Shown here one piece after another: positions 6,166 to 59,010 of a stretch of DNA of 64,000 nucleotides. The notes below the pieces were generated by a model, which saw only the letters and a list, made by a program, of their open reading frames with translations, was not told the origin of the DNA and made no database searches. The stretch is from NCBI GenBank assembly GCA_965224705.1, contig OZ245056.1, positions 2,464,001 to 2,528,000 on the forward strand, in the 5' to 3' direction. The position numbers and the translations under genes were made by a program. Origin of the DNA: Spirochaetaceae bacterium (GTDB taxonomy: Bacteria; Spirochaetota; Spirochaetia; DSM-2461). Numbering within the stretch: the first letter of the stretch is position 1; every line of letters begins with the position of its first letter.

Positions 6166-6637
6166 TGTCTTCTTTGTCCATATTGATATCATCTGTAGTA
6201 AATGGGACTTTAATCTCAAAACCCTTGTAGACCATAAAAGATTCAATGGATTCTATTCGGTCAACTTTGCTTAATTCTTCGCTGAGGAATTTCAACAGGT
6301 CGAATCCCTGCTGAAGATGCACAGTGATGAGTAAATCGTAGCGACCGGTTACAACACCAACTGAAACAACACCGTGAAGTTTACTTACCTCTTCTCCTTT
6401 GGAAACGTAATTCATATCTTTGAGCTTGGCACCGATGTAGATGATTTGATGACCCAGCATGGCTTCAGGGTCAACATAGCCTGCAATTTTCAGTATTCCA
6501 TCCTGTTCAAGTTTACGTACTCGTGCTTTTATTGTGTTTTCTGATACTCCAAGAGCAACAGCGATTTTTTTGTACGGCTTTCGTCCTTCAGTCAAATGAC
6601 TGATAATGCTCATATTCAATTGATCAATCTGAGTCAT
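6152..6637 (-). CDS. Lrp/AsnC family transcriptional regulator
   Basis: N-terminal HTH (GRKPYKKIA..GVSENTI..RV..L) and VTGRYDL RAM motif. Confidence 0.9.
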   Translation of the reverse strand: MTQIDQLNMSIISHLTEGRKPYKKIAVALGVSENTIKARVRKLEQDGILKIAGYVDPEAMLGHQIIYIGAKLKDMNYVSKGEEVSKLHGVVSVGVVTGRYDLLITVHLQQGFDLLKFLSEELSKVDRIESIESFMVYKGFEIKVPFTTDDINMDKEDNEPD

Positions 6638-7733
6638 AGTACCTGCTTGCGAAATCCTTCATTAGTTCCATCAGTCTCATCAGACCATCCATACTCATGG
6701 CATTATACAGGGAGGCTCGGCATCCTCCCACACTGCGGTGTCCCCTGAGACCTACGAGTCCGTTTGCTGCAGCCTCCTCAAGAAATTTGTTCTCTAACTG
6801 TTCCGTTCTTAATCGCCAGACTATATTCATATCCGATCTCATATTGGGGTCCACGGGATTCCTGTAGAATCCTTCAGACTCATCAATGAGCCTGTAGAGT
6901 GCTGCGGCCTGCTGCTTGTTCTCTTCTGCAACTCGACTCAAACCACCTTGATCTTTTAGTTTTTCCAAAACCAGTTTCATTGCCCAGATAGAGAATACTG
7001 GAGGAGTGTTATATAGAGAATTGCTCCTGGCATGAACGGCGTAATTCAAATATGAACCAAGATAATTGGGACAGCGTGAAAGAAGATCTTCTCTGATTAT
7101 CACGACTGTTGCGCCAGCTGGACCAAGGTTTTTCTGGGCACCGGCATAAATCACAGCAAACCTGGAAACGTCAATTGGTCTGCTGAGGATATCGCTGGAC
7201 ATGTCGGCAAAGAGGGGAATCTCCTGTGTGTCAGGAAAAGATTTCCACTGAATCCCTCCTATTGTTTCATTGGTGGTTATGTGAAGATAGGATGACTCCT
7301 TATGTATTGTCAGATCGAGGGGATTGGGCAGCGTGCAGTATCTGTTACTCTCACCATCCCATGGGATAGATATCGAACCGAACTTCTTTGCTTCTGTAAT
7401 TGCTTTTTGTGCCCATGCACCGGAATTAATATACTCGGCTCTGCTGTTGGGTAATAGAAAATTCATTGGGATCATGGAGAACTGCAAAGTAGCACCTCCA
7501 CTGAGGAGGAGAATGCAATAGGATTCAGGGATTTTCATCAGTTCTCTGAGGAGGAGAATCACTCCGTTATGTACTTCTCTGTATGGGGTTTCCCGGTGGC
7601 TCATTTCCACTATGGAGAGACCAGTCCCATTGTAGTCGAGCATTTCCTGTGAAATAGTCTTCAATACTTCAACAGGGAGTACAGATGGACCAGCAGAGAA
7701 ATTAACAGGGCGATTCAATCCTTCTCTCCTCAT
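6624..7733 (-). CDS. serC: Phosphoserine aminotransferase
   Basis: NFSAGP, EMSHR, NETIGG, DMSS, GAQKNLGP, NTPP, GHRSVGG motifs. Confidence 0.97.
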   Translation of the reverse strand: MRREGLNRPVNFSAGPSVLPVEVLKTISQEMLDYNGTGLSIVEMSHRETPYREVHNGVILLLRELMKIPESYCILLLSGGATLQFSMIPMNFLLPNSRAEYINSGAWAQKAITEAKKFGSISIPWDGESNRYCTLPNPLDLTIHKESSYLHITTNETIGGIQWKSFPDTQEIPLFADMSSDILSRPIDVSRFAVIYAGAQKNLGPAGATVVIIREDLLSRCPNYLGSYLNYAVHARSNSLYNTPPVFSIWAMKLVLEKLKDQGGLSRVAEENKQQAAALYRLIDESEGFYRNPVDPNMRSDMNIVWRLRTEQLENKFLEEAAANGLVGLRGHRSVGGCRASLYNAMSMDGLMRLMELMKDFASRYYDSD

Positions 7734-7782: not shown

Positions 7783-8248
7783 CGAGGAGAAGAGCAAAAC
7801 AGGAAAGGCCGATGTTATCAAGTTTTTGGGTATGACCATTGTGGCCGGAATGATCACGATTTCGTCGGTGTCAATGAGCCGAGCCAATGATAGGCTTTGT
7901 GAATTGATACCCAGACGAACGAATCAGTCTATTGAATCTGCAATGGAAAAGCTGAATACCTGGTACCGGGGCTGGAGCGGATATTACGGTATGACCGAAG
8001 ATAAGCACCAGCTTCAAAGAGTAGAAGCCCATGCCAGAAGGCGATTGAGATCCCGAATAGTGTATGAGCACAAGAGACCCCGGAATCTGAAACGAACTCT
8101 ATTAAAAAGGGGAGTATCAGAGTATGGGGCCAATCGTATCATCAACAATATGGGCATCTGGGCGACTTCAAGGAGTCCGGCTATGCACAAAGCTTTTCCC
8201 AATCGGTATTTCATTGAAGAACTCGGGCAGTTTATTTATTCAGCCTGA
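7783..8248 (+). pseudogene. 5'-truncated group II intron RT/maturase (end of RT plus domain X only)
   Basis: EEKSK..IKFLG and LN..YRGWSGYY..RRRLR maturase motifs; no YADD region; cut off at the edge of the serC upstream region. Confidence 0.85.
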
Positions 8249-8278
8249 GACTGAAAGAAATTTGAACACATGCATGAG

Positions 8279-8355
8279 GAGCCGTGTACGGACCCGTACG
8301 CACGGTTCTGTGAGAGGACGGCATCCCTGCTTTCGCAGGGTGCCTCCTACTCGAT
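8279..8355 (+). ncRNA. Group II intron domains V-VI and 3' splice site
   Basis: 30-nt DV GAGCCGTGTACG-GACC-CGTACGCACGGTTC with AGC triad, then TGTGAGAGG, DVI hairpin and CTACTCGAT end. Confidence 0.9.
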
Positions 8356-8569
8356 GCGTAGCTGGGCTACGTGAGTATTTTGGCAACGCAGCTGCAGGGG
8401 ATGCGAGTCTATAAACTCGCATCCTGAGAGAGTGCCGAGCGATAGCGAGGAAAAGCCGCCACGGATGGCGGCGAAAACGAACGAAGGCGGCTTTCCAGAA
8501 GCAAGCAGGAGGCTTGCTTCTGGAGAGAAGGGCAAAAATCGAGCCGTGAGACGTAAATCCGACAGGTTC
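8356..8569. mobile_element. Partial hairpin-rich MITE copy (3' exon of the intron)
   Basis: Near-identical to the reverse complement of 41943-42157; ends in TIR AAATCCGACAGGTTC. Confidence 0.9.
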
Positions 8570-8570
8570 C

Positions 8571-8891
8571 CTATGCAGAATCGTAGACTTCGTCTTTTGT
8601 CGGAAGATTGACTCTCAACTCTTTCATATAGGATTTCAAATCTCCCATCGGTGTATATGTATCACAGTGATCCATGAACCGACGTGCGATTGTAAAATAC
8701 TTGTGTAATTTCTCGTCGCCAAGTTTCTTGCGCCATTTCCCGGCACTGCATCTGATTCGCAGCATGTATTTACCATCATTGGTGTAATGACGGATGAGTT
8801 TGCAGTTTATGCAATTGGCACAGTAGATTTTCTTATTTAAATTCTCTTTTAACGGATCAAATGCTGGAACCATTTCCATCCTCTCGAGCAC
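8571..8891 (-). CDS. Small Cys-rich hypothetical protein
   Basis: CANCINC..C..C; possibly metal-binding; start uncertain. Confidence 0.65.
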   Translation of the reverse strand: MLERMEMVPAFDPLKENLNKKIYCANCINCKLIRHYTNDGKYMLRIRCSAGKWRKKLGDEKLHKYFTIARRFMDHCDTYTPMGDLKSYMKELRVNLPTKDEVYDSA

Positions 8892-38559: not shown

Positions 38560-38633
38560 GGAGTCTGTCTCTGTGCGGGCTTGATACGCTTCTCTTATAT
38601 CCACTATCATGTTTGAGGGAGTTTTATTGATAA

Positions 38634-39113
38634 ATGACAGGATATGTAAAACATCTCTCGATGATAATAATACCAGCTTTGCTTTCATCCTGCGTCAGTG
38701 CAGTTGATACCCTTGATCCCACATGGTCACCGGATATTTTTTTCAAAAACGCTCAGGAAGCCTCAGGTGACAGTCGGTACAAAGATGCCCTGTTTTATTA
38801 TGATGTATTTCTTATTCGATATCCTGAAAGCATTCCAAGAAGAATAGCTGCAAGATATGAACAGGCGTTTATTCATTACAAAATGGGCAGAATCAAAGTA
38901 GCTGAAGCACAATTCAATGCAATACTGAAAGAATATGACGAGAATCCCTTTGCCGCTCTCTTCCCTCCGCGCTTCAAGCAGTTATGCATAATCGGCTTGA
39001 AGAATATTGAGCGCAACAGGGCTTTGAACAATAAACTCTTCTGGCGCATGAATGAAAAACGATGGGCTGAAGAGCATAATGAGGAATTGACCGATATTTC
39101 AAATGAGCCGTAA
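38634..39113 (+). CDS. TPR lipoprotein (BamD-like fragment)
   Basis: Lipobox LSSC; AQEA..Y..A..YY..RYP..A.YE.AFI.YK. Confidence 0.7.
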   Translation: MTGYVKHLSMIIIPALLSSCVSAVDTLDPTWSPDIFFKNAQEASGDSRYKDALFYYDVFLIRYPESIPRRIAARYEQAFIHYKMGRIKVAEAQFNAILKEYDENPFAALFPPRFKQLCIIGLKNIERNRALNNKLFWRMNEKRWAEEHNEELTDISNEP

Positions 39114-39291
39114 CATCCTGTTGGCACCGCATGCTGCCATGCCTCGTCATTTCATGGGCGAACTGTGTGGTCATGACGTGAGTATGGTCAAACAACCTTC
39201 CGTTTTACCTGAAGTTTCTCCCTATTCTGAATGGTGGATCTCAGCCGGATTTCCTGAAAACACAGGTTTCTAATAAAAAGCAGTCCCCGGG

Positions 39292-39313
39292 TATAGACAA
39301 ATTGTTGTCTATA
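39292..39313. promoter_or_regulatory. Perfect 9-bp inverted repeat upstream of the RRM gene
   Basis: TATAGACAA-ATTG-TTGTCTATA. Confidence 0.4.
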
Positions 39314-39494
39314 TTGTATTCTGTACAGACTGTAAGATTGGTAACGTTCCAATCTGGCCGTTGCACACGTGTTAGCACGAGCGATAAGTGATGTCGATGC
39401 CTCCTGTTCTGTGGCCTTGCCCTCTATCCTTTCTTTCCGTAACAACGTTTAAGATGAACAGCCACTTACGGGTTAAAGTACTCAGGAGAGAAAA

Positions 39495-39767
39495 ATGCCC
39501 AAAAAACTCTATGTCGGGAATCTCAGTTATTCCATTGATGATCAGGAACTTGAAAATTTGTTCAGTCAGCATGGTCAGGTGACCAGTGCCAGAGTTATCA
39601 TCGACCGATATGACAATCGATCCAAAGGATTTGGTTTTGTAGAAATGGAGGATGAAGCTGCGGCCGATTCCGCTGTCGAGTCCCTTAATGGTCAGGACCA
39701 TATGGGACGTCAATTAAAAGTCAGTGTAGCACGCGAGAGAACAGATCGTCCTCGCAAGGCTTATTGA
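39495..39767 (+). CDS. RRM RNA-binding protein
   Basis: RNP2 LYVGNL and RNP1 KGFGFVEM; AGGAG ribosome-binding site. Confidence 0.95.
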   Translation: MPKKLYVGNLSYSIDDQELENLFSQHGQVTSARVIIDRYDNRSKGFGFVEMEDEAAADSAVESLNGQDHMGRQLKVSVARERTDRPRKAY

Positions 39768-39939
39768 TCAGCAGGGCTGTATCAATAAGAGTATCTGGTT
39801 CAAGTACAGGGGGAATGGGTTTTGTGAGCAAAGCGTAATTAATCTGCTATGCATTACAGATTCCTGCTCAACCATGCGTCCGAACCAGAGACGATTACTG
39901 ATGCAGCCATTTCACGCATAACATCAACAGGGGGATTCT

Positions 39940-40158
39940 TTGGCACGCAGTCACTATACTTACGAGAAACGTCAGATTGAACTAAAAAAGAAAAAGAAGC
40001 GTGAAGAGAAACTTCTTAAAAAGAAGGGAGGGGTGACGGAACCCACTGATGATGCAGCCGAATATCTGGCAATGCTCCGGGGAGAACCATTTAACAGCGA
40101 TGAAGATGATCAGGACAGCGCAGAACACCCGAGGGGTACTGAACCTGAAAGCAGATAA
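39940..40158 (+). CDS. Small basic/acidic hypothetical protein
   Basis: MARS..YEKRQ.E.KKKKKREEK; GGGGGA before TTG. Confidence 0.65.
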   Translation: MARSHYTYEKRQIELKKKKKREEKLLKKKGGVTEPTDDAAEYLAMLRGEPFNSDEDDQDSAEHPRGTEPESR

Positions 40159-40202
40159 CACATCGCATTCAGTTAATTCAACTGTGTTTCAGATATGGTC
40201 AA

Positions 40203-40697
40203 ATGAGTGGTGTGGATTCCACTATGAACAAAAGAAATATAATTAGAGAAGAGATCAATGAAGCCCAGCATAAATGGGCAGACAACGTCATTGAACTGGG
40301 AAAACTTATCAAAACCCCGGCTGCTTTGGTACAGAAAGCAGAAGAATTCCTGGATAACCTGTATTCATTCAGAGAAGGACAGGTTTTATTTAAGCCAACC
40401 AGGGCCTCAGCGCATCCTTTCAGGCTCACCAGAGAATCAGCACTGTCCTATTTCATTGGGGGAAACTCTACTTTCAGCGAAGATACAGGTTTCGTTCTCA
40501 GGCCGTGGAAATCAGTACAATTTGATAATGCAGGCATATACTGCAATGGTGCAACTGCCATGGCAATGGGTCATTACACTTTTACGAGCATGGAAGAAGA
40601 GACTTTGCTGGCTGAATACTCCTTTGGATATGTACAGGACGAGGATGGCCTGCTGAGGATTGTACTTCATCACTCATCCATTCCATTCCATTCATAA
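40203..40697 (+). CDS. COG4337-type NTF2-fold protein (iota-class carbonic anhydrase candidate)
   Basis: LFKPT, ALSYF.G, ED.GF..PW, AMG.Y.F, EYSFGY and terminal HHSS motifs. Confidence 0.75.
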   Translation: MSGVDSTMNKRNIIREEINEAQHKWADNVIELGKLIKTPAALVQKAEEFLDNLYSFREGQVLFKPTRASAHPFRLTRESALSYFIGGNSTFSEDTGFVLRPWKSVQFDNAGIYCNGATAMAMGHYTFTSMEEETLLAEYSFGYVQDEDGLLRIVLHHSSIPFHS

Positions 40698-40806
40698 TTC
40701 ACAAATATACACCGATTGACTGTGCCGAGACGTCCATCTTAACAGCAATCCTTGAATCAGTCTGGATTACTTGTTGCTTCTCAGATATAATGAACCATCT
40801 GTCATG

Positions 40807-40852
40807 GAGTCTGTCGGATTTTAAGGCTTCGAGGCGGAAGTCCGACAGACTC
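40807..40852. mobile_element. 46-bp minimal MITE (ends only)
   Basis: GAGTCTGTCGGATTTTAAGGCTTCGAGGCG (identical to one end of 41943-42229) joined to AAGTCCGACAGACTC; flanks CATG/CATA. Confidence 0.8.
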
Positions 40853-40886
40853 CATATCTGACGGATCCATAATGGAGGAGAAAATA

Positions 40887-41891
40887 ATGGCTGATCTAAA
40901 GACTTCTTACATGGGCATAGCACTTGAAAACCCAATTATTGCTGGTGCCTCTGAACTCACTGGACATATGGATTCAATCAAGAAGATTGAAGACTCAGGA
41001 GCAGGTGCCCTGATAATAAAGAGCTTGTTTGAAGAGCAAATACAGCTTGAAAGAGCTCGTTTCGAGGAAGAGCAGGGGCAATACAGCGGTTTTAACGCAG
41101 AAATGTCCAGCCTTTATCCGGAGATGGAACATTCTGGTCCCGATACCCATTTGATGTGGGTTCGAAAAGCCAGAGAAGCAGTGTCCATTCCTGTTTTTGC
41201 AAGTTTGAATGCAGTTAACAAAGACACCTGGACAGAATGGGCCGTAAAACTCCAGGAAACAGGAGTTGACGGGTTGGAACTGAATTTCTTTGCCAATCCT
41301 GAACAACAGGCGGACAACAGTGCTTCCATAGAGCAGGAACAGCTGGAAGTTGTACAGGCAGTACTGAAAAGTGTAAAAATACCTGTTGCTATAAAAATGA
41401 GTTTGTTTTACACAACTCCGATAACTGTTGCCAGAAAATTTTCTGATGCAGGAGCACAGGGATTGGTATTATTCAACAAGTTTTTCCAACCGGACATAGA
41501 TGTTGAGAAAGAAACAAACACCCTGCCCTTGAATCTAAGTACTTCAACGGCCAATCGTCTGCCTCTGCGATATGCAGGTCTGCTTTACGGCAATGTAAAC
41601 GCCTGTATCTGTGCTTCAAGCGGGATAATGGATGGCCTGGATGTCGCAAAAATGCTTCTGGCAGGTGCCGATGTAGTTCAGGTTGTCAGCACTCTCTACA
41701 AGAATAGAATTACTCAATTGGGCCGCCTTGTTTCAGATTTGAGCAACTGGATGGATGCCAAAGGGTATGAGAATATAAACGCTTTCAAAGGAAAGATGAG
41801 CAGACAGAAATCCGATGATCCATGGGTGTATAAACGGGCTCAATATGCAAAACTGCTGATGAAACCAAACCCGATGGGAATAATCCGATAA
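40887..41891 (+). CDS. Dihydroorotate dehydrogenase-like flavoprotein
   Basis: L.NPIIAGAS, KSLFEEQI, ASLN, ELN, LFNKFFQPDID, GAD.VQVVS motifs. Confidence 0.88.
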   Translation: MADLKTSYMGIALENPIIAGASELTGHMDSIKKIEDSGAGALIIKSLFEEQIQLERARFEEEQGQYSGFNAEMSSLYPEMEHSGPDTHLMWVRKAREAVSIPVFASLNAVNKDTWTEWAVKLQETGVDGLELNFFANPEQQADNSASIEQEQLEVVQAVLKSVKIPVAIKMSLFYTTPITVARKFSDAGAQGLVLFNKFFQPDIDVEKETNTLPLNLSTSTANRLPLRYAGLLYGNVNACICASSGIMDGLDVAKMLLAGADVVQVVSTLYKNRITQLGRLVSDLSNWMDAKGYENINAFKGKMSRQKSDDPWVYKRAQYAKLLMKPNPMGIIR

Positions 41892-41942
41892 TTTTTCTCA
41901 TTTCATGATTGTTTCAGTACAGGAGATATTCAGTTTATCTAA

Positions 41943-42229
41943 GAGCCTGTCGGATTTACGTCTCACGGATCGATTTTTGCCCTTCTCTCCAGAAGCAAGC
42001 CTCCTGCTTGCTTCTGGAGAGCCGCCTTCGTTCGTTTTTCGCCGCCATCCGTGGCGGCTTTTCCTCGCTATCGCTCGGCACTCTCTCAGGATGCGAGTTT
42101 ATAGACTCGCATACCCTGCTGCTGTGTTGCCAAAATACTCACGTAGCCCAGCTACGCTCCGTTTTTGTCGCCTTGCATCAGGAAGAAATCATCAAAAATC
42201 GCCTCGAAGCCTTAAAATCCGACAGACTC
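41943..42229. mobile_element. 287-bp hairpin-rich MITE (longest copy)
   Basis: 15-bp TIRs GAG(C/T)CTGTCGGATTT; at least four internal hairpins; related copies at 8356, 40807, 58803 and 63857. Confidence 0.9.
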
Positions 42230-42244
42230 CTGGAGAGAATACAA

Positions 42245-42685
42245 TTGACTGATCAGGTTATATCACTGGATGCGATTATGAATGCTGTCAGGAAGAAAGT
42301 GACCGGCGATTTCGATCTTGTTGTGGGCATTGAAAGAGGCGGCGTGCTGCCGTCCTGTCTGGTTTCCCACTGGCTGAATATCCCTTTGAGTCTGATAAAG
42401 ATCAGATTTCGAGACGATAATCATCAGCCGATCATGGATTCTCCACAGTTGTTGAAGGAACCGAATGAGAATATAGCGAACCGAAGCATCCTTCTGGTCG
42501 ATGATGTGTGTAACACTGGAGCTACTTTGAACCTTGCTGTGAAAGAGCTGAAAGATGCAGCTCACATAAAAACCATGGTCATTTCCGGCTATGCGGATAT
42601 ATCTCTCTTTGGTGTGCATGAGAAATGCCTTCAGTGGCCCTGGGACGTGGACAAAGCATTGGGATCAAGTGCAGTAGAAATCTAG
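42245..42685 (+). CDS. Type I phosphoribosyltransferase
   Basis: VGIERGG and LLVDDVCNTGATL PRPP motif; TTG 42245 after GGAGAG. Confidence 0.85.
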   Translation: MTDQVISLDAIMNAVRKKVTGDFDLVVGIERGGVLPSCLVSHWLNIPLSLIKIRFRDDNHQPIMDSPQLLKEPNENIANRSILLVDDVCNTGATLNLAVKELKDAAHIKTMVISGYADISLFGVHEKCLQWPWDVDKALGSSAVEI

Positions 42686-43533
42686 AAATTCCGCGTATTG
42701 CGAATCAGCTCCCAGGCATGTTGAATTTCCTGGAATTTGGTCTTGGCGAATTCGGTGAATTCCTTTGGAAGTCCCTTGGCTGCTATTTTGTCCGGATGAT
42801 ATTCAGCGGCTTTTTTTCTGTATGCTTTACGTATTTCAGACTCTGCTGCATCCGCATTGACATCCAGGGTAGCGTAGGCATCCTTCAAATCACCTCCTGA
42901 TCCGCCTGCAGAGCCGCTTCCACGGGAAGAACGTCCACCAAATGTGTAGCGGGATCGGATTGATTCATATGCACTGGCAGAATACCCAAAAACTTCAGCA
43001 GATTCCCGAAGAATCCTGTCTTCTGCCGGGTGGATTCCATCAACTGATGCACTCACACGGATCATAATGAGCAGCATCATCTCCAGTAACTGAGGACGAT
43101 TTCCAAACGTATTTCTGGCACGACTTGCATATTGAGAAACTGATGTAGAAGACGAAGATGCTTCTCGGAAAATTCTCATGGCCATGGATATGCTTTCCGG
43201 AGAAGTAATATGCAGTTCATTAATCACTACATTTCGAAATGTCTTCTCTTCTTCCGGGCTGACATATCCATCTGCTGCAGCAAGTTTGCCCAGCATGGAG
43301 AAAAGGGTTTCCATGAAGACAGGTCCATCGGCTGCACCGACGCTCCCCCAACCGGAAAACCATCCATGGGTACTGCTGCCCTGGTGACTATTCCGGTAAG
43401 TCCGAACACCGATTCCTGATCCAATAGAACTTCCTATAGCTGAAAAAATAATTCCAAGGAGAAAAGATCGCAAGAGATAGGCACCAATAAAGAATCCTAG
43501 AATAGCACCGATCAGGGAAGCTGGGTTTATCAA
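42682..43533 (-). CDS. djlA: DjlA-like co-chaperone (TM, TerB-like, J domain)
   Basis: LGKLAAADG.VS.EE; C-terminal YHPDK. Confidence 0.85.
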   Translation of the reverse strand: MINPASLIGAILGFFIGAYLLRSFLLGIIFSAIGSSIGSGIGVRTYRNSHQGSSTHGWFSGWGSVGAADGPVFMETLFSMLGKLAAADGYVSPEEEKTFRNVVINELHITSPESISMAMRIFREASSSSTSVSQYASRARNTFGNRPQLLEMMLLIMIRVSASVDGIHPAEDRILRESAEVFGYSASAYESIRSRYTFGGRSSRGSGSAGGSGGDLKDAYATLDVNADAAESEIRKAYRKKAAEYHPDKIAAKGLPKEFTEFAKTKFQEIQHAWELIRNTRNF

Positions 43534-43632
43534 TTATCTACTCCTTGGAAAAAATTATCCGAAATCATCTATCTGGACAAGTAATAAACATGAAGATTAG
43601 CAGTGATTTCTTTGCCATGGCTAAAATGACAG

Positions 43633-43661
43633 TTTACACAATAGCATTCCCCAGCGATAAT
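43633..43661 (+). promoter_or_regulatory. Sigma70 promoter, possibly leaderless
   Basis: TTTACA-17-GATAAT-6 nt-ATG 43668. Confidence 0.5.
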
Positions 43662-43667
43662 TCTAAC

Positions 43668-44804
43668 ATGATTCTTAATGAAAATGTCAGCCGCAAAATC
43701 ATTCCCATTGCCGGAGGTAAGGGAGGAGTTGGAAAAAGCATCCTTGCGGTAAACATGGCATTGAGCCTGGCAAAGAATGGAAAGAAAACTGTTCTTGTGG
43801 ACCTGGATCTCAGCGGCTCCAATATTCATACTCTGCTTGGGGTAAAAAATACAAAATCTGGAATTGGGAATATGCTATCCGGCCTCAAAACCTCGGTGTC
43901 TGAACTGGTCTGCCCTACACAATGGGAGAATCTGTATTATATCCCGGGAGATGTCCATGTCTATGGCGTCGGGGAACTCACACAGCCGGAGAAAACATTG
44001 ATAATCAATGGTCTGCTGGAAACTGAGGCTGATTACATTATCCTGGATCTGGGCGGCGGTACCAATTTCACTGTACTTGATTTCTTCCTGGTATCAAACT
44101 CCGGACTTATAATTACAACTCCACAAACAACATCAGTAATGAATGCCTATGCATTCTTAAAAAACTATGTTCTGCGATTTCTGCGGCGAGCCTTTGCTTC
44201 CAATAAGGGTATTTCAAAATATTTGAACAATGTTGTCAGAGAACAGAAACAAGAAGATCGAAGAACAATGAGTGAAATCATGGAATCTATCACTGAAATA
44301 AATGTAGAAGATGGAGAAAAGGCATCCGCATTTCTTGACGTCCTTCAACCAAAGCTCATCCTTAACAAAATAAACAGTACAGCTGACATTGTGATAGCTG
44401 TTGGATTGCGTGATCTATGTAAAAAGAACCTTTCCATAAACATTGAATGTCTGGGAACTGTTCTGGAAACTGAGATTGTCAATCGTTCTTCTGAAAACCT
44501 CACCCCATTTGTACATGACTTTCCGGAGCACATAGTTACGAATGAAATCCACCGCATATCCCAGAAGATACTTCAAAGTGGGAATTTTCCGCAAATGCCA
44601 TTAGAACTGGATTATTACTCAGATTCTTATGAACTGGCTCATATCGAAACGGAAAACGACATTGCTATTCAACAATCAGAAAAAAAATCAGGTGAGAATA
44701 CATCAGAGTTTGAGGTAGATCAGCTTCTGGAGCTGATCCGACTTCAGCAGGGGAAGATTCAAGAACTCCAGGGAACCTTGAGAATGCTTTCCATAGGGCA
44801 ATAA
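43668..44804 (+). CDS. MinD/FlhG-like P-loop ATPase
   Basis: GGKGGVGKS, DLDL.GSN, DLGGG, TTP.TTS..NAY.F.K motifs. Confidence 0.85.
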   Translation: MILNENVSRKIIPIAGGKGGVGKSILAVNMALSLAKNGKKTVLVDLDLSGSNIHTLLGVKNTKSGIGNMLSGLKTSVSELVCPTQWENLYYIPGDVHVYGVGELTQPEKTLIINGLLETEADYIILDLGGGTNFTVLDFFLVSNSGLIITTPQTTSVMNAYAFLKNYVLRFLRRAFASNKGISKYLNNVVREQKQEDRRTMSEIMESITEINVEDGEKASAFLDVLQPKLILNKINSTADIVIAVGLRDLCKKNLSINIECLGTVLETEIVNRSSENLTPFVHDFPEHIVTNEIHRISQKILQSGNFPQMPLELDYYSDSYELAHIETENDIAIQQSEKKSGENTSEFEVDQLLELIRLQQGKIQELQGTLRMLSIGQ

Positions 44805-44806
44805 CC

Positions 44807-45361
44807 CTATGACAATCCATCAGGGACTGTAAGAATCTCCATCGGTTTTGCAATCAAATCACAGGCATTTCTGGCATCAGTTCTGGTTATATTGAGCGTT
44901 TTCCACAGGGATTGTTCAAAGAATCCAAGTATTGTACGAATTGAGGATTCATCATTGTAAACAATGTAGGATGTATTCAACCCCGTTTCCTTCGCAATGG
45001 TAAAGGAAGTGTAAGTTACTATAGGTTCCTTGGCAATCATTACTTTTTCCTGCCGCTTCGTATTATATACTTCCAGTTCTTTTAGCCGAAGAGGTATGCG
45101 ATGCGCTTCATCGCGATGTATGGGTTCAAGATGCTTGGAACCGTAGTTCAGTGGTTCAAACAAAATGTAGAGCTTCCTGCCATCAGATTGAAATAACAAA
45201 CCATCTTCATTGATATAGATATCTTTTACATTTCTATAGGAAATAACTTCATAATGTGCATAACGGGTGGCATCATCAAGAAACTCTGAAATAATATAAC
45301 CCCTATCCCGGGGTAATTCATTGTCCTTATACGCTTCGTATAGCTCCAAAATCTTAGCCAT
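44807..45361 (-). CDS. Hypothetical protein
   Basis: ORF with GGAGG before ATG 45361. Confidence 0.7.
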   Translation of the reverse strand: MAKILELYEAYKDNELPRDRGYIISEFLDDATRYAHYEVISYRNVKDIYINEDGLLFQSDGRKLYILFEPLNYGSKHLEPIHRDEAHRIPLRLKELEVYNTKRQEKVMIAKEPIVTYTSFTIAKETGLNTSYIVYNDESSIRTILGFFEQSLWKTLNITRTDARNACDLIAKPMEILTVPDGLS

Positions 45362-45402
45362 GGATCCTCCATTAGAAGTGATACTATCATAGATGCTCAC
45401 TA

Positions 45403-45431
45403 TTGTCAATTTTTTTTCTCAAGATTAGTAT
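45403..45431 (+). promoter_or_regulatory. Sigma70 promoter, possibly leaderless
   Basis: TTGTCA-17-TAGTAT-5 nt-ATG 45437; no Shine-Dalgarno. Confidence 0.5.
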
Positions 45432-45436
45432 ATATT

Positions 45437-46267
45437 ATGAATTTACAGCAGGCGAGGGCAATTTTCAGGCTGGATTCCCGAATCAGCATGGAAGAGCTTA
45501 ACGGACTGTTCCGCACTCTGGTAAAAAAATATCACCCCGATAAGGTAAGAGATCATCCAGAATGGGCTCATGCCAGAATGACAGAAATCAATGATGCATA
45601 TGAACTGCTGGTAAAGAGAATCACCTCTCCTGTTCAAACTGAACCGGAAGAAAACCCGGTGGACAGGGAAGAACCGAATGATAATACCGACACTGATTCA
45701 ATCTGGCAGGTACCGCCCATGGATGAAGAAGAATCAAGGATATTCTACCCACTGTTTAATGACTTCCTTGATGGTCTGGGGCTGTATTATCAATATGGAC
45801 TGGAAAACCCTCCTGTCAGAATGGAAGGAATCCGGCGATTTCGGTATCGTGAAGCGATGAGAACAATTATCAGGGGCAGAGATTCTTTAGCCGCTTGCAG
45901 GAAAATACAGCCGCATCCGGTATTCTCAGCCGCATCTCGATTTGCCAGACTCACCACTGCGGATATTGACCTTGGAGAAATAGCCATTTCTTCAAATCCC
46001 CTTCACCGCAAATACGATAAGCGAATGATCAATGCCCGACGTTCATTCGATGAATCCATAAAAGTTATCCTGTTCCCGGAACTTGTTCCTCATCACCTGC
46101 ATTCCCGGAGTTACTCCGGTTTGTATTCGTGCTACTCTGAATTCGTTATTTATTTTACTGTTTTTGAAGAAGGGGAGCGCCGGAAGGCTGGAATTCTCCA
46201 GGCTGCACGCTATGATGCATTCATGACACTGGTTCAGATGCGCAATGCCCGAATCATGGAATTCTGA
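45437..46267 (+). CDS. J-domain protein
   Basis: KKYHPDK..M.EINDAYE. Confidence 0.85.
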   Translation: MNLQQARAIFRLDSRISMEELNGLFRTLVKKYHPDKVRDHPEWAHARMTEINDAYELLVKRITSPVQTEPEENPVDREEPNDNTDTDSIWQVPPMDEEESRIFYPLFNDFLDGLGLYYQYGLENPPVRMEGIRRFRYREAMRTIIRGRDSLAACRKIQPHPVFSAASRFARLTTADIDLGEIAISSNPLHRKYDKRMINARRSFDESIKVILFPELVPHHLHSRSYSGLYSCYSEFVIYFTVFEEGERRKAGILQAARYDAFMTLVQMRNARIMEF

Positions 46268-47554
46268 TTGATTTACTACCAGCGAAGCGGAATCAACATC
46301 TCTCTTTCCCGGAGGGATTTAAGGGAAGGCCTTTTCCAGGCTCTGGACAAACTGGGAAAGCGGAACAATGTACTGGCTGTTCCTCCAGATATTACCCGTT
46401 TGCATTCCTGTGCAGGCGAACTTACCTCCTGTTCCTGCCAGTACTATGGCAGGTCACTTACCGCTGTGCTGCCAGCCCTGGGCACCCATACCCCCATGAC
46501 TTCAGGTGAAATCAACCGCATGTTTCCCGGTATTCCCCACAGGTTATTCAGAAAACACAAATGGCAGACTGACCTGACGACTCTCGGCACTGTACCTGCC
46601 TCCTTTCTGACGGAAGTGTCTGAGGGAAAGATAACGTACGACTGGCCGGCACAGGTCAACAAAATTCTTACTGAAGGCCGCTTCGATTTGATTCTCTCCC
46701 TTGGTCAGGTTGTTCCTCACGGAGTGGTCGGCATGGCGAATCACTCGAAAAACATCCTGATTGGCACAGGGGGTGCAGAAGGAATACATAGGAGTCATTT
46801 TCTCGGTGCTGTTTACGGTATGGAAAGAATTATGGGTCACACTGATTCACCGGTTCGTTCCGTACTGGATTATGCGATTAACAAATTCGCCGGGGAGTTA
46901 CCCATCCTCTACGTTCTCACAGTTGTCAGTCTCACATCATCAGGCGAATTCGCTGTCAGGGGATTGTTTATTGGTGATGGGCGGGAGTGCTTTGAACAGG
47001 CTGCCGCCCTCTCCAGAAAGGTGAACTTCACCATAGTTGAGAAACCCATCAAAAAATGCTTTGTTTATCTGAATCCAGAGATATATCGCAGTACATGGCT
47101 GGGAAACAAAGCCATCTACCGAACCCGTATGGCCATGGCTGACGAGGGAGAGATAATAATATCAGGACCAGGGCTGTCGAGATTTGGTGAAAACAGGGAA
47201 ATCGACAGACTGATTCGCCGCTATGGATACTGTGGAACACCTTCGGTACTGAGTTCTGTTCGGCAAAATGCGGATTTAAAGGCGAGTTTGAGCACGGCTG
47301 CCCACCTTATCCATGGATCTTCAGAGGGACGATTTCGAATTACCTGTGCATCAAAGTATTTAAGCCGGAAGGACATCCAGGGTGTTGGCTACAATTATGC
47401 CGATCTGAATAGTTTAGCAGAAAGATACAACCCCTCCTCAATGAAGCCCGGATGGAACAATGTGAAAGGTGAAGAAGTATACTTCATTACTAACCCTGCC
47501 ATGGGCATGTGGACCCATCCAGACAGGTTCTCCAGTACTGACAGAGATATCTGA
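46268..47554 (+). CDS. LarA/DUF2088 family racemase/epimerase
   Basis: PPDITR, ALGTH, GQVVPH..GMANH.KN motifs. Confidence 0.8.
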   Translation: MIYYQRSGINISLSRRDLREGLFQALDKLGKRNNVLAVPPDITRLHSCAGELTSCSCQYYGRSLTAVLPALGTHTPMTSGEINRMFPGIPHRLFRKHKWQTDLTTLGTVPASFLTEVSEGKITYDWPAQVNKILTEGRFDLILSLGQVVPHGVVGMANHSKNILIGTGGAEGIHRSHFLGAVYGMERIMGHTDSPVRSVLDYAINKFAGELPILYVLTVVSLTSSGEFAVRGLFIGDGRECFEQAAALSRKVNFTIVEKPIKKCFVYLNPEIYRSTWLGNKAIYRTRMAMADEGEIIISGPGLSRFGENREIDRLIRRYGYCGTPSVLSSVRQNADLKASLSTAAHLIHGSSEGRFRITCASKYLSRKDIQGVGYNYADLNSLAERYNPSSMKPGWNNVKGEEVYFITNPAMGMWTHPDRFSSTDRDI

Positions 47555-47600
47555 ACCCTATATAATATCTATTATATAATATATAAGCTGGAGAATTTCA

Positions 47601-50600
47601 TTGATGAGATCACTTGGTATTTGTATAGGTGCTTCGACAGTAAAAACGGCATCTATTGATGATAGATTCAATGTGACTGATAAAAGGATTATCAATCACG
47701 ACGGACATCCACAAAAGGCATTGACCGATGTTTTTCAGGATCTGGACCTCAGCAGGTACAATTATGCTGCCATCACAGGGAGAAAGTTTAAAGAACTCCT
47801 TAATCTCCCTGAAATCACTGAGCCCATTGCAGCCGAGTATGCTCTCAAGCATGTTAAATCCAGGAATTGCAGAGCATTGATCAGCCTCGGAGCAGAAAAC
47901 TTTATTCTTTATGTCCTGAATGATCATTACAATATTGTCAGTGTACAAACGGGCAATAAGTGCGCATCGGGTACAGGAGAATTTTTTCTGCAGCAGATTA
48001 GAAGGATGAGCATATCAACTGATGAAGCCATTGAACTTGCCCATAAGTCTGAGCCATACACTGTTTCCGGGCGATGTTCTGTTTTCTGTAAAAGTGACTG
48101 TACTCATGCCTTGAATAAGGGGATTCCCAAAGGGCGGGTCAGTGCAGGTCTGGGGAATATGCTTGCCGACAAGGCATTGGAACTTTTACGATCTATCAAA
48201 AACGAAAACATCATGATTGTTGGCGGTGTAACCAGAAATGATTTTGTCGTCCAGGCTCTAAGAAAACAGATAAACAACGTGGTTATCCCTGAGCATACCG
48301 ATGTTTTCGAGGCCTATGGTGCTGCTGTATACGCTCTTGAAAAGAAAGAGACCATTACAGGTGAATTGTCATTTAAATCTGACCATACTTCCTTCAGCTC
48401 ACTTCCATCGCTGAGAAATGCAGAAAAACTGGTATCGTTCAAAGACTCTATTCGGGAAAAACCGACATCAGGAGATGATTATATTCTGGGACTGGATGTA
48501 GGATCCACAACAACAAAATCAGTGCTGATTCGAACAAGAGATAAGAAAATTGTCGCATCGGTCTACTTACGAACGAACGGGAATCCCATAGCCGCTTCAC
48601 GGGACTGTTACAGGGAGATAAACACTCAAATACTGGAATCAGTTTCAAGTGGAGATATTAACATCATCGGCCTGGGTGTAACCGGCTCCGGGCGTCAGAT
48701 TGCCGGTATTCATGCCGGTACGGATGGAATTGTAAACGAAATAATTGCCCACGCAACAGGAGCAGCACACTTTGATCAGGAAGTGGATACGATTTTCGAG
48801 ATTGGTGGTCAGGATGCCAAATATACCTTTCTGGTCAATGGTGTCCCATGTGATTACGCCATGAATGAAGCCTGTTCCGCAGGAACTGGTTCCTTCCTGG
48901 AAGAGGCTGCCAGAGAATCGCTGAACATAAGCTATCTGGATATTCAGAAAATCGCCATGGGAGCTGACAATCCTCCCAATTTCAATGATCAATGTGCGGC
49001 GTTTATCAGTTCCGACATTAAGAATGCTTCTCACGAGAATATCTCCAGGGACAATATTGTTGCCGGACTTGTGTACTCAATCTGCATGAATTACAACAAT
49101 CGTGTTAAGGGAAACAGAAAGGTTGGTGAAAAAGTCTTTATGCAGGGGGGGGTCTGTTACAATAAGGCCGTACCTCTTGCCATGGCCCAACTCCTCCAAA
49201 AAGAAATCATCGTCCCCCCCGATCCAGGATTAATTGGAGCTTTTGGTGTGGCTTTGGAAGTGAACAACAGGATCGATAATGAGCTGCTGGAGAAATCAGA
49301 CTTCAATCTTGTTGAACTGAGTGAAAAAAATGTGGAATACGGTAAAACTTTCACCTGTGCCGGTACTTCAGAGAACTGCGACAGAGCATGCAGGATCAAC
49401 ATCATAAAAATTGATAAAAAAAACTATCCGTTTGGCGGCATATGCAACAAGTATTACAATCAGCTTCATCACCTGAAAATCAACCCCGTTCCACTGAACT
49501 ATGTTGAAAAACATCAAGAATTGCTATTCGCTCAGCATGGGCTGGCAACCTCGGAAAAGAGCATCGGTTTATCCAGGGCCCTGTACACCAACATCCTCTA
49601 CCCATTGTTCTATCACTTCTTCACCGGCCTTGGCTTCAAGGTAATCCTTTCGGACAACGTGGATGCGGATGGTGTAAAAAAAACAGCTTCATCATTCTGT
49701 TACCCTGTGGAAATTGCCCACGGTATGTACCATAACCTGCTCCAGAAGAAACCCGACTTCATATTTCTTCCCCATATCACAAGGCTTTACCGAGTGACAA
49801 AACAACCAGGTAATGAAGGTAACAACTGCACCTGTGTTCTGGCTCAAAGTGAGCCCTACTATCTTAAAAGTACCTTTAAAGAGTCTATCTCCAAAATCAT
49901 CAGTCCCGTTCTGGACTTTCATCAGGGCTGGGATACCATGGAAAAAGAATTCATAGAAGTGGCAAAACGATTGGGCTGCGGCAAAAAAATGGCAAAAGAA
50001 GCCTACAAGGAAGGCATCAGACGGCAGAATGATTTTTATACCAACAAGAAGAAGTTGGGAAAGGAATTACTCCTGAAGTTAGAGAAGGATCCTGCGAAAA
50101 TTGCCCTGGTAATTTTTGGACGCCCATACAATGCTCTATCCGGAGATGGAAACCTGGGAATTCCAGGTAAAATTGCCTCCCGCGGCATCTATGTCCTGCC
50201 CTTTGACTGTCTGCCCTTTGATGAAGAAGAAAGCATGGAGAATATGAATTGGGCCATTGGACATGAATTGATACAGGCCGCCCGGTATGTGAAGAAGCAC
50301 AAGCAGTTATTCGGTGCTTTTATAACTAATTTCAGCTGTGGACCGGACTCATTTATTGTGGGTTACTTCCGGGACATCATGAAAACAAAACCTTCCCTAA
50401 CTCTGGAGCTGGATTCCCACAGTGCTGATGCAGGCATCAATACCAGAATTGAAGCATTTCTGGACATCGTTAACCGTTACATACATCTGGGATTGAGGGA
50501 TGAGCAATCCCGAGAATTCACTCCGGCAAGAATTCACAAAGAAAAGGGGAAATATCAATACATCACAAGTGATGGAGAGATTTTCCCGCTCAAAGATAAA

Positions 50601-51845
50601 CGAGTCAACCTACTCATTCCTTCCATGGGCCGAGCAGTATGCGAGTTCGGTGCTGCTGCATTCAGGGGGATAGGTTTTAATGCTGCATCCGTTGCCTATC
50701 CTACATTCGATACATTGATGACAGGCAGATCCCACTCCTCCTGCAAAGAATGCCTGCCCCTGATAATGACAACGGCCTCTCTTGTTACCCATATCAGGGA
50801 GAGAGAGCCAGATGAACTAACACTGTACTTCATGCCATCAACCGGCGGGAATTGCCGCTTTGCCCAATACCATGTGTATATCAAGAGGTTAATTGAGAAA
50901 CAGCAGATCAAGAATGTAGCCTTATTGACCCTCAGTGCCGAACAGAATTACATGGGACTTGGGACTGTCGATCAGATTAGACTTCTTCAATCTATTATCA
51001 TTTCGGACATTATGGATGACATTGGCAATGCTATCCTTGTTCTTCCAAAAGACAGGGAGAAGGCTCAGCTAATTTTCAATGAACAATGGCAAAAGATAGT
51101 TGTTTCCCTTGAGAATGGTGCTTCCGACCTGTATGAAGTCCTTGAGGACGTTGCTGAAAATCTGGCTGCCATTGAGCTTTCGCAGCCTCTGAGTGAGTCG
51201 AAAAAAGTGCTTCTATCGGGAGAAATATATGTGCGTAAGGATGAATTTACCTCAGGGGAAGTCATAAAAAGGCTGGCTGCAAAAGACTTTGTTGTAAAAA
51301 GGGCGCCTATACTGGAGTGGTCATATTACATTGATTACATATCAAAACACATCCTGGATACTGAGTTTTCGCTGAAGGACAGGGTGGAAACATTGGTTAA
51401 GAACATTGTTGAAAAGAAGATTGAGAAGAAGATAAAAATGGCTCTGGCCAAGTCCGGTTTGTATGAGTATGAAAGAATCGACATTCAGAAATTATTTGAG
51501 GCAGGAAAGGAGTTCATCGATCCCCGGATGACGGGGGAAGAGATACTTGTCATTGGTTCCTTTTTCAATGAAGTCGCCAAACATGTTCACGGCGTAATTT
51601 CCATTGGCCCCTTCGCCTGCCTGCCCACCAGAGTATGCGAAGCCATTTTGAGCGTCGAATCCAATGTGCAGAATAATTCCCGGATTGAACATTTGGATAA
51701 TTCAGAACACCTTAAGGAATTTCATACATTGCCCTTCTTGACCATTGAGGCTGATGGCAATCCTTTCCCCCAGGTTGTGGAGGCCAGAATTGAATCATTT
51801 ACACTTCAGGCCAATCGAATGTATGATTTGATGAACACAGGTTAG
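47601..51845 (+). CDS. Fused 2-hydroxyacyl-CoA dehydratase activator-like protein (two ASKHA activase domains plus C-terminal domains)
   Basis: KCASGTGEF/CSVF, GLDVGSTTTK, EIGGQD, CSAGTGSF, FSCGPD, GPFAC motifs. Confidence 0.88.
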   Translation: MMRSLGICIGASTVKTASIDDRFNVTDKRIINHDGHPQKALTDVFQDLDLSRYNYAAITGRKFKELLNLPEITEPIAAEYALKHVKSRNCRALISLGAENFILYVLNDHYNIVSVQTGNKCASGTGEFFLQQIRRMSISTDEAIELAHKSEPYTVSGRCSVFCKSDCTHALNKGIPKGRVSAGLGNMLADKALELLRSIKNENIMIVGGVTRNDFVVQALRKQINNVVIPEHTDVFEAYGAAVYALEKKETITGELSFKSDHTSFSSLPSLRNAEKLVSFKDSIREKPTSGDDYILGLDVGSTTTKSVLIRTRDKKIVASVYLRTNGNPIAASRDCYREINTQILESVSSGDINIIGLGVTGSGRQIAGIHAGTDGIVNEIIAHATGAAHFDQEVDTIFEIGGQDAKYTFLVNGVPCDYAMNEACSAGTGSFLEEAARESLNISYLDIQKIAMGADNPPNFNDQCAAFISSDIKNASHENISRDNIVAGLVYSICMNYNNRVKGNRKVGEKVFMQGGVCYNKAVPLAMAQLLQKEIIVPPDPGLIGAFGVALEVNNRIDNELLEKSDFNLVELSEKNVEYGKTFTCAGTSENCDRACRINIIKIDKKNYPFGGICNKYYNQLHHLKINPVPLNYVEKHQELLFAQHGLATSEKSIGLSRALYTNILYPLFYHFFTGLGFKVILSDNVDADGVKKTASSFCYPVEIAHGMYHNLLQKKPDFIFLPHITRLYRVTKQPGNEGNNCTCVLAQSEPYYLKSTFKESISKIISPVLDFHQGWDTMEKEFIEVAKRLGCGKKMAKEAYKEGIRRQNDFYTNKKKLGKELLLKLEKDPAKIALVIFGRPYNALSGDGNLGIPGKIASRGIYVLPFDCLPFDEEESMENMNWAIGHELIQAARYVKKHKQLFGAFITNFSCGPDSFIVGYFRDIMKTKPSLTLELDSHSADAGINTRIEAFLDIVNRYIHLGLRDEQSREFTPARIHKEKGKYQYITSDGEIFPLKDKRVNLLIPSMGRAVCEFGAAAFRGIGFNAASVAYPTFDTLMTGRSHSSCKECLPLIMTTASLVTHIREREPDELTLYFMPSTGGNCRFAQYHVYIKRLIEKQQIKNVALLTLSAEQNYMGLGTVDQIRLLQSIIISDIMDDIGNAILVLPKDREKAQLIFNEQWQKIVVSLENGASDLYEVLEDVAENLAAIELSQPLSESKKVLLSGEIYVRKDEFTSGEVIKRLAAKDFVVKRAPILEWSYYIDYISKHILDTEFSLKDRVETLVKNIVEKKIEKKIKMALAKSGLYEYERIDIQKLFEAGKEFIDPRMTGEEILVIGSFFNEVAKHVHGVISIGPFACLPTRVCEAILSVESNVQNNSRIEHLDNSEHLKEFHTLPFLTIEADGNPFPQVVEARIESFTLQANRMYDLMNTG

Positions 51846-51852
51846 GAATATC

Positions 51853-53010
51853 ATGATCTACCTGGACTGGGCCGCCACCGCTCTGCCCTCCGCCGCTGTC
51901 ATTGACGCCATGGCCGCTGCAGCCAGGGAATGCTTTGGGAACCCGTCATCTCCATACGAGGAGGGCAAAAAAGCCCGTACTGCTCTTGATGATGCCCGCA
52001 GTCGATGTGCCCGTGTTCTGGACTGTGAACCAGCGCAATTGACGTTTACCAGCGGCGGCACGGAATCCAATGCAATAGCCCTTCTTTCCAAACTGCTTGT
52101 CCGCAAGCCGGGAACCATAATCCATTCGGGAATTGAGCATCCCTCTGTAACAGAACCCATCAGAACCCTTGAAGTACATGGATGGTCAATAAAAGCATTA
52201 CAGCCTGATACAGATGGCATCATCCGACCGGATAGACTTGCCAGACTGTTGAAAAAGAATCTCAACACACGACTGGTATCCATCATAGGTGTGAGTAATG
52301 AAATCGGAGCCATTCAGCCAATTGAAGAATTGACCGCTGTCACACGAGATTTTCAGACCGAGAGAGGAAGGCCTATTCACTTTCATGCTGACCTTGTTCA
52401 GGCTGCTGGAAAAATCCCCATAAATCTGACTGGAATGGATGTCGACTCAGCGGCATTCAGCGCCCATAAGTTTCGAGGTCCAAGGGGCATGGGACTTTTT
52501 TATCATCGACAACATCAGTTTGATGTTTTGCATCGTGGAGGCGGACAGGAATCAGGAATACGGCCCGGAACCGAAAACGTTGCTGGAGCCATAGGCATGG
52601 CTCTGGCTCTGGAACTCTACGGTCAGCCCGCTCATGAAGTCAGGGAAAATGGAGAATGGCTGTTACAGCAGCTTTTGAAGATGCCGGAAGTGAGCATAAT
52701 TCCAGAGAGTCGGGTATCGGTGAATAACCCACTCTACGTGCCGGGAATTATTCCTCTCACCTGCCCACCCATTCCCGGCGAAGTTCTGGCAAGAGTTCTT
52801 GCAGAGTCCGGTTATGCAATCTCCACTGGTTCAGCCTGCAGTAATAATCGAAGAGGCAAAAAGACTGGGAATTTGGCTGCACTTGGAATCTCTGATGAGT
52901 TGGTTACCGGGATGATTCGGATTTCGTTGGGAGGAACAACACGGAGGGAGGATCTGGTTGGGTTCATCAAAGATCTGAGAACTCACATTACCACTTTCAG
53001 AAATTATTAG
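51853..53010 (+). CDS. Cysteine desulfurase (IscS/NifS class)
   Basis: IYLDWAAT, GNPSS, FTSGGTE, EHPSV, SAHK, GTEN, GSAC motifs. Confidence 0.92.
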   Translation: MIYLDWAATALPSAAVIDAMAAAARECFGNPSSPYEEGKKARTALDDARSRCARVLDCEPAQLTFTSGGTESNAIALLSKLLVRKPGTIIHSGIEHPSVTEPIRTLEVHGWSIKALQPDTDGIIRPDRLARLLKKNLNTRLVSIIGVSNEIGAIQPIEELTAVTRDFQTERGRPIHFHADLVQAAGKIPINLTGMDVDSAAFSAHKFRGPRGMGLFYHRQHQFDVLHRGGGQESGIRPGTENVAGAIGMALALELYGQPAHEVRENGEWLLQQLLKMPEVSIIPESRVSVNNPLYVPGIIPLTCPPIPGEVLARVLAESGYAISTGSACSNNRRGKKTGNLAALGISDELVTGMIRISLGGTTRREDLVGFIKDLRTHITTFRNY

Positions 53011-53019
53011 CCTTCCCCA

Positions 53020-54274: not shown

Positions 54275-54325
54275 TCGGTATTCAATACAGGGTTCAGATG
54301 AATACTCCTGATGTGAATGCTCGTT

Positions 54326-58802: not shown

Positions 58803-58977
58803 TAGTAACTTACGCATCACATCCCTGCTGCGTTGCCTGCCTGCTGCACGGCAGACAGGCCAAAATACTCTCCAGCCCAGCTGCGCTCCGTTTTTGCCCG
58901 CCTGTCGGCGGACAGGTCGCCTTGCATCAGAAAGAATCATCAAAAATCGCCACGAAATCTCAAAGTCCGACAGGCTC
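58803..58977. mobile_element. Degenerate MITE copy with two nested palindromic inserts
   Basis: Aligns to about 42110-42229 with inserts at 58836-58859 and 58897-58916; TIR AAGTCCGACAGGCTC; left boundary approximate. Confidence 0.75.
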
Positions 58978-59010
58978 CTGGCGAAGATGGGACACTGATT
59001 GCAGGAAGAG

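Follow-up and report, generated by a model that had tools for sequence, protein, structure and literature searches.

A dead group II intron joined exactly to a MITE, probably left by a class-C-related lineage for which the MITE is a recurrent but not an exclusive target

The 64,000-nucleotide stretch analysed here (the window, G000:C1:2464001-2528000 of a 3.0-Mb single-contig genome) carries the last part of a group II intron joined to a MITE. We read this junction, with a probability of roughly 0.6, as the fossil of reverse splicing by a class-C-related intron that reads CGRA|G (the bar marking the insertion point), the MITE being a recurrent but not an exclusive target. An initial annotation had proposed that the intron lineage uses the multicopy MITE as a homing site; the MITE is a frequent target, probably one in which insertions are tolerated, and not a dedicated homing site.

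At the 3' junction the intron ends in ...CTACTCGAT (8355) and GCGTAGCTGGGCTACG follows at once. The Rfam RF00029 match (8277-8355, 47.9 bits against a gathering score of 40) stops at the last of these intron bases and the MITE starts at 8356, so that the exact join described in the initial annotation was confirmed, as were its short domain V with an AGC triad and the loss of the 5' part of the intron and of the left MITE arm; only the far end of the MITE, which had been put at 8569, has to be moved by one base, to 8570. The DV-DVI fold has a z of -5.3, and we take the branch A to be the one at 8349 from its position (-7). Homology to the full-length copies begins abruptly at 7783 (intron nt 1464), there being no microhomology at the breakpoint. 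The 573 nt that remain are the final part of the intron; domains I-III and the RT part are gone, so the window copy is unable to splice or move and is a dead intron. The maturase remnant is without the C-terminal HWF...W tail of the clade to which this intron belongs. The features are collected in Table 1.

Table 1. Features of the intron-MITE locus and of the intact MITE in the same window
Feature	Position in window	Strand	Remarks
serC (phosphoserine aminotransferase)	6624..7733	-	native upstream sequence ends ~7779, 3 nt before the intron remnant
Group II intron 3' remnant	7783..8355	+	nt 1464-2035 of the 2035-nt (2.03-kb) full-length form; 97.4% to full-length copy A
Intron-encoded protein remnant, thumb/maturase (X) region	7783..8248	+	PF08388, 46.4 bits; C-terminus ...GQFIYSA-stop
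Domain V	8279..8308	+	30 nt; AGC triad at 8280-8282
Domain VI	8312..8355	+	bulged branch A; 3' end ...CGAT
3' exon, right 215 bp of the 288-bp long-form MITE	8356..8570	+	first base G = IBS3; apical hairpin 8356-8372
Second target site, same MITE (ACGAA|GGCGGC)	8481..8491, junction 8485|8486	+	empty in the window copy; filled in copy A and run X5
Right terminal inverted repeat	8556..8570	+	an IS1182 elsewhere in the genome has TIRs of this type; the repeat adjoins the 106-aa gene at its stop codon
Conserved 106-aa gene, right flank	8571..8891	-	cysteine-containing; no NCBIfam family
Intact 288-bp MITE, both target sites empty	41943..42230	-	site 1 at 42158|42157

The intron is antisense to serC, to the 106-aa gene and to the upstream glgP run. 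The 106-aa gene is present in 10 of 13 congeners and adjoins glgP in the ten loci compared. In congener G311 (92% identical DNA) the two flanking genes lie 17.9 kb apart; a 15-kb block from between them is found inverted and displaced to 38561-53787 of the window, with a multicopy IS-like repeat (~53020-54280) at one of its ends, and two further genes of the G311 interval have only 61-65% paralogues here. Given this arrangement and the end of the serC upstream sequence at 7779, the 7783 junction is a deletion or rearrangement breakpoint. Neither G311 nor four other congeners gave an ancestral order, and no pre-insertion allele was found.

Public contigs contain the 7783 junction in two studies and the insertion at the second MITE site in a third (X5). 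A contig of run X1, possibly the source sample, crosses 7783 by 61 nt with 0 differences, and one of X4, from another study, crosses it with 4 differences by 30 nt, one below the 31-nt bridging rule. Among the matches listed none of the contigs covers 31 nt on each side of 8355|8356; the site-1 3' junction is also present at two more loci of the assembly. As this 3' junction thus occurs in identical form three times in the assembly, and the one at 7783 was recovered in two studies, an assembly artefact is unlikely. Contigs of the RNA run X10 cover the 3' part of the intron, and no splicing was seen in them. Elsewhere in the window, positions 62321-63130 hold an array of ~27 units with a 30-nt period, probably a coding repeat.

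The MITE family comprises 192 loci (blastn, genome), about 1.0% of the genome, and 98 of its elements run from TIR to TIR; 68 of these measure 162-164 bp and 15 measure 287-289 bp. The short form folds into a single long imperfect palindrome. A 2-bp target duplication was found in 54 of 86 elements, and the 15-bp TIRs are also the ends of an IS of 1607 bp, which encodes an IS1182 transposase (323.8 bits, cut-off 270); the family thus has the TIRs, target duplication, lack of an ORF, high copy number and autonomous partner of a MITE. It resembles a non-autonomous IS1182-family element in the TIRs common with IS1182, the short duplication and the missing ORF, and differs in its palindromic core, which is modular and occurs also in a second MITE family with other ends. 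TIR-only derivatives of 48-55 bp are present in the window at 40806-40853, 58930-58984 and 63856-63910. There is an internal loop at site 1, whose unpaired side is the GGA preceding the insertion point, with a 7-bp apical stem immediately 3' of it. On the minus strand at 42158|42157 the MITE is uninterrupted, GACAAAAACGGA|GCGTAGC, and it matches 8356-8569 with 96.7% identity over 215 nt. The empty site reported there by the initial annotation is present, but the genome has 94 such exact empty sites (CGGA|GCGTAGC), this one included, and a special tie of the window locus to the 42-kb copy was rejected, other long copies being equally similar.

The intron has the DV/DVI end, GUGYG start and RT-maturase ORF of a group II intron (TIGR04416, 353 bits, cut-off 300). 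Its protein, P0001, is of 410 aa and has no endonuclease domain, has the GsI-IIC RT as best solved match (323 bits) and is ~37-47% identical to classic class C. We fetched 80 metagenome loci with 53-75% protein identity; the clade as used here counts 83 loci. As to the class of the RT, which the initial annotation had left to be settled, quick trees (with no named F, g1 or g6 references included) give the clade a long branch of its own (SH-aLRT 100), which joins that of class C (SH-aLRT 99), with a p-AU of 0.395 for a position inside versus sister to class C, and put two integron-associated reference proteins on a separate branch. By sequence, then, the clade is placed in or beside class C. 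The intron resembles class C/IIC introns such as B.h.I1, GsI-IIC and the E. rectale intron in its short DV, AGGAA motif, EBS1 of 3-4 bp with EBS3 and no EBS2, and RT/maturase lacking an endonuclease (PMC1702495, PMC10190682); the AGGAA motif is represented by GAAGGAAG, conserved across 58 aligned domain I sequences. It differs from them in protein identity, in the absence of a U-tract and in its catalytic triad, AGC in place of CGC. DV could be read in 73 of the 81 clade loci examined, and AGC is present in 72 of these; the exception, L060, is a clade member with CGC, so the triad has switched within the clade. The distal stem of DV is shortened: DV is 30 nt long here, and the four outgroup introns in which it could be read have 33-35 nt.

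To judge from published descriptions and lengths, the clade is possibly the g6 variety or part of it. Toro and Nisa-Martinez describe g6 (D.p.I1, Pe.th.I1, Al.or, Na.th.I1, Tc.po.I1 and Al.ma.I1) as near but outside class C, with a similar, class-C-like RNA structure (PMC4244168). Its introns are ~2.1 kb long (PMC8919778 Table 3) against 2.02-2.13 kb in the clade, the D.p.I1 protein is of 439 aa against mostly 435-450 aa, and about half of g6 introns are linked to predicted terminators (PMC4244168, PMC8919778); the g6 descriptions consulted give no triad, EBS map or palindrome geometry. None of the named g6 proteins appeared among the matches of the protein searches. Searches of the ESM Atlas, viral contigs and phage records returned generic or distant matches only. 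At four clade loci (L099, L106, L075 and L101) the start or DV of another intron adjoins or lies within ~30 nt, these being tandem or nested insertions.

To see how the target is recognised, domain I was aligned for the clade loci with a 5' boundary together with copy A (58 rows, with L050 and L101 left out as doubtful), and covariation was scored over the 54 relatives left after near-duplicates were taken out. Exon positions -1, -2 and -3 are Watson-Crick complementary to intron nt 237-239 in 45/54, 44/53 and 44/52 cases (~14-17 expected), and exon +1 pairs with nt 283 in 33 of 44 (12.7 expected); none of 200 shuffles equalled these counts. Position -4 covaries partly with nt 240, and over the same 54 relatives there was no comparable covariation at -5 to -10, with -8 marginal (9/200 shuffles) and no clear EBS2. 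An EBS2 or an extra pair at -5 was rejected in the absence of a clear covariation signal; a purine stands at -5 in all six 5' exons of the genome. The four genome copies retaining domain I all have UUCG as EBS1 and C as EBS3, and the six 5' exons end in CGAA (5) or CGGA (1), while all six 3' exons begin with G. The EBS/IBS pairing suggested as a check thus bears out: EBS1 and EBS3 covary with the target, and UUCG and C fit CGRA|G at all sites. This is the IIC pattern of EBS1-IBS1 of 3-4 bp plus EBS3-IBS3 with no EBS2, as laid down in PMC1702495, with the triad as the exception, and in the window lineage recognition is only CGRA|G.

Six intron 3' ends were found in the genome (W, the window copy, and A to E), together with a 5' fragment, H. 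Four of these 3' ends are in the MITE family, at two sites, and two in unrelated sequence, and the six main copies are all intergenic. A and C are full length, with a GTGTG start and an open frame of 426 codons; B (1071337-1073373) is full length with its frame broken by TAG; D (1533615) and E (1942783-1943455) are 673-nt forms produced by internal deletion. The copies are 94-98% identical; when their last 573 nt are compared, W comes closest to A, and D to C. At site 1 the 3' exons of W, D and E are the long MITE form, the short form and the second MITE family, respectively, and all three copies are defective. E has both site-1 exons, and its rebuilt empty site is spanned by 141 blast hits. 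A occupies the second site of the long MITE, and its rebuilt empty site is spanned by 36 hits; it is part of a complete unit of 2.3 kb with a TIR at either end. C is at a unique palindrome, the flanks of B are also unique, and full-length B and the further 5' ends of D and H are in non-MITE sequence; the flanks of B and D seem to resemble attC-like repeats. Neither W nor D has the 5' exon that belongs to site 1, the one of D coming from a different sequence. The two exons of D were never found together, and D is probably a recombinant. B, D and many G303 copies (see below) have 5' and 3' exons from different sites, which points to recombination between intron copies, and some copy junctions may be its products.

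Two observations stand beside this inventory. Copy E is ORF-less and keeps domains I-III, V and VI; an E-like join at window position 8156 occurs in X4 and X5, and in X10 a contig begins to match at 8156; the summed contig depth in these runs is higher 3' of the join. Copies of the E type may possibly form a non-autonomous mini-intron family. Partial reverse transcriptase matches at L004 (2212052-2212549) and L005 (527025-527480) were missed by the intron DNA search, and both adjoin MITE matches.

The MITEs hold 307 of the 11,146 CGRA|G sites of the genome (2.8%) and 21% of the 1,479 non-coding ones, the coding mask being a crude ORF call, and 21-34% of matching non-coding sites come from them. 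The probability of at least four of six 3' exons falling in MITEs is 8e-6 over all sites, 0.02 over non-coding sites and 0.11, which is not significant, over non-coding sites with RCGRA|GS, a consensus drawn from the same sites, and only six to seven events are available in this genome. The MITE excess is therefore modest once limited to non-coding DNA. GC skew was too irregular for a clear origin or strand-bias reading.

A sister intron in the congener G303 (82% identical in domain I; G301, whose match positions are those of G303, was counted with it as one genome) has 21 3'-end matches and a different EBS1, which its 5' exons, mostly ending in GGAG, fit. The homologous MITE core is found in 5 of its 21 3' exons and 4 of its 20 5' exons, with the insertion one base 3' of the site used here, and the core is a recurrent hot spot in two genomes, yet it provides a minority or a bare majority of their sites. 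In G303 a MITE of the family that hosts copy E also lies inside domain I, at one position in 7 of 20 5' ends (L204, L205, L208, L213, L216, L224 and L225) at different loci, and 4 more 5' ends have another small repeat at that position, which suggests that MITE-bearing introns kept moving or were homogenised.

The homing proposal of the initial annotation is thus borne out in part. Site 1 recurs, with half of the 3' exons in three MITE subtypes, both exons in E and a homologous core in G303, and the window copy is not a one-off; the other copies do sit elsewhere, with intact A at the second MITE site, C at a unique palindrome and the 5' ends of B, D and H outside the MITE. None of the full-length copies A, B and C is at site 1. 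That the core is nonetheless a dedicated homing site, with an RNP that reads its structure (a short stem with IBS1 in an internal loop on its 5' side) and ectopic insertions elsewhere, we consider unlikely. The use of one exact site in three subtypes would fit such homing, as would the G303 intron, which with EBS1 and EBS3 both changed still enters the homologous core, shifted by a single base and again where the apical stem has its foot. However, neither intact copy is at site 1, 16 of the 21 G303 3' exons lie outside the core, and three congeners with 20-63 MITE-core matches each, one of them a 77% complete genome, gave no RF00029 match.

The geometry of the targets bears on whether structure has any role. 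In the clade, 5' exons have a stem of at least 8 bp ending exactly at the insertion point in 14 of 39 cases (0.2 expected from shuffled sequence; 0/28 upstream controls). When both exons are joined, 14 of 32 clade sites have such a hairpin, with the apex 11-17.5 nt upstream in 13 of the 14 and downstream in none. None of 16 classic class C exons has a stem ending at the site, the stems lying mostly 2-9 nt upstream, and a T-tract is present at 14/16 classic class C sites versus 1/39 clade sites. The relatives mostly target the 3' foot or the 3'-arm interior of palindromes, without a U-tract. Many of these palindromes resemble GTAG- or CGTC-type REPs. IIC introns are described as following terminators "or other inverted repeats" (PMC1702495), and in the cryo-EM structure of a IIC RNP a stem is followed by a 4-nt spacer and then IBS1, the DNA-binding domain being placed on the spacer and the base of the stem (PMC10190682); the stem of the clade, in contrast, ends at the insertion point with no spacer, and the closest hairpin in the present genome lies on the 3' side of the insertion.

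The host lineage departs from this geometry. A stem ending at the site was found in 0/6 cases here and 0/19 in G303 (0/25 for the lineage), and no stem of at least 8 bp ends within 13 nt of any of the six sites in the genome, so that the upstream stem-loop and U-tract of IIC targets are missing. At site 1 the apex of the hairpin is 9 nt downstream, that is, the hairpin is 3' of the insertion point, opposite to the IIC rule, and the analogy drawn in the initial annotation with IIC terminators and attC does not transfer directly. Targeting of terminators or attC was rejected, the sites being CGRA|G and a T-rich end occurring at the single clade site mentioned. The sites are like those of IIC-attC introns in that IBS1 lies within an imperfect DNA hairpin and not after a terminator, and unlike them in that the target is not TTGT/T in the attC bottom strand (PMC7923331). 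The host-lineage proteins, here and in G303, end before the HWF...W tail; our hypothesis is that the absence of the tail led to the departure, the two genomes not being independent. The link is not strict, since L256, which has the tail, sits where a loop ends, in ACGGA|GC, and in G491 three copies with the tail have imperfect or short hairpins only.

It is also improbable, and more so than dedicated homing, that survivor bias acts alone, a 5-nt rule being applied anywhere with no role for structure and copies persisting only in dispensable repeats. The lack of a fixed hairpin geometry at the 25 lineage sites, the weak enrichment within non-coding DNA and the intergenic position of all six main copies agree with it; all five two-sided foldable sites, however, form hairpins at or near the junction (a count with no shuffle control), and the structural signal of the wider clade is strong. 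Very improbable is a single insertion spread among MITEs by recombination or by intron-plus-MITE transposition rather than repeated retrohoming, for although mismatched exon pairs (D and many in G303), mosaic SNP patterns and the TIR-bounded unit around A speak for exchange between copies, there is a divergence of 4-5% among W, D and E, which are each in a different MITE subtype and have their affinities with different full-length copies, not with one another, and A is at a different site.

In the preferred reading, an endonuclease-less, class-C-related intron with IIC-type recognition and an AGC triad would have reverse-spliced into a copy of the IS1182-derived MITE, its EBS1 (UUCG) pairing with CGGA and its EBS3 (C) with the following G. 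By analogy with other En-less introns, retrohoming would have been into single-stranded DNA at the replication fork. Non-coding, palindrome-rich repeats would be occupied because they expose a single-stranded target and tolerate insertions, and with the MITE family as the largest supplier of such sites the MITE would be hit repeatedly, other targets being used as well. The intron would then have lost 1463 nt, and the MITE its left arm, through a later deletion or rearrangement. The data establish the boundaries, the copy number, the range of sites, EBS1 and EBS3 (by covariation) and the make-up of the MITE with its IS1182 partner; a part played by the hairpin, a selective advantage of harmless sites and the direction in which the deletion ran are what we infer. 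A broader scenario can be put forward only tentatively: the AGC clade would open the 3' arms of REP-like or MITE palindromes (IBS1 buried, 11-17 nt from the apex, no spacer), and the host sub-lineage, having lost tail and geometry, would have become a near-promiscuous 5-nt targeter that trades places with MITEs, introns landing in MITEs and MITEs riding in domain I of spreading introns.

That introns exploit insertion sequences and other multicopy mobile DNA is already known, RmInt1 homing into ISRm2011-2 and RmInt2 into the inverted repeats of ISRm17 (PMC5894124). Like the present intron, these class D introns are En-less and spread via a multicopy mobile element, and RmInt2 has two sites and relaxed specificity; unlike it, they are class D/IIB, with EBS1 and EBS2 and a long target (PMC5894124), while the present intron follows a 5-nt rule and is found in a non-coding MITE as well as at several unrelated sites. 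A single long homing site of the RmInt1 type for nearly all copies was not seen, the copies being distributed over two MITE sites and several unrelated flanks. Neither the homing of group II introns into MITEs or REPs, nor a IIC clade with an AGC triad, nor this geometry was the subject of any paper returned by a literature search, which had most subscription papers outside it. What is new is the AGC triad and targeting geometry of the clade, and the departure of the window lineage from that geometry.

As the window copy is dead, the interest lies in the intron family. A CGC triad and the order stem, spacer, IBS1 have been taken as IIC hallmarks; here IIC-type recognition is found together with AGC and a different hairpin geometry. 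The intact copies A and C and the many relatives with varied EBS1 offer a direct test of how a minimal RNP reads DNA shape and of the role of the tail. The reciprocal nesting of introns and MITEs, with its mismatched exon pairs, also points to a source of rearrangement in these repeat-rich genomes.
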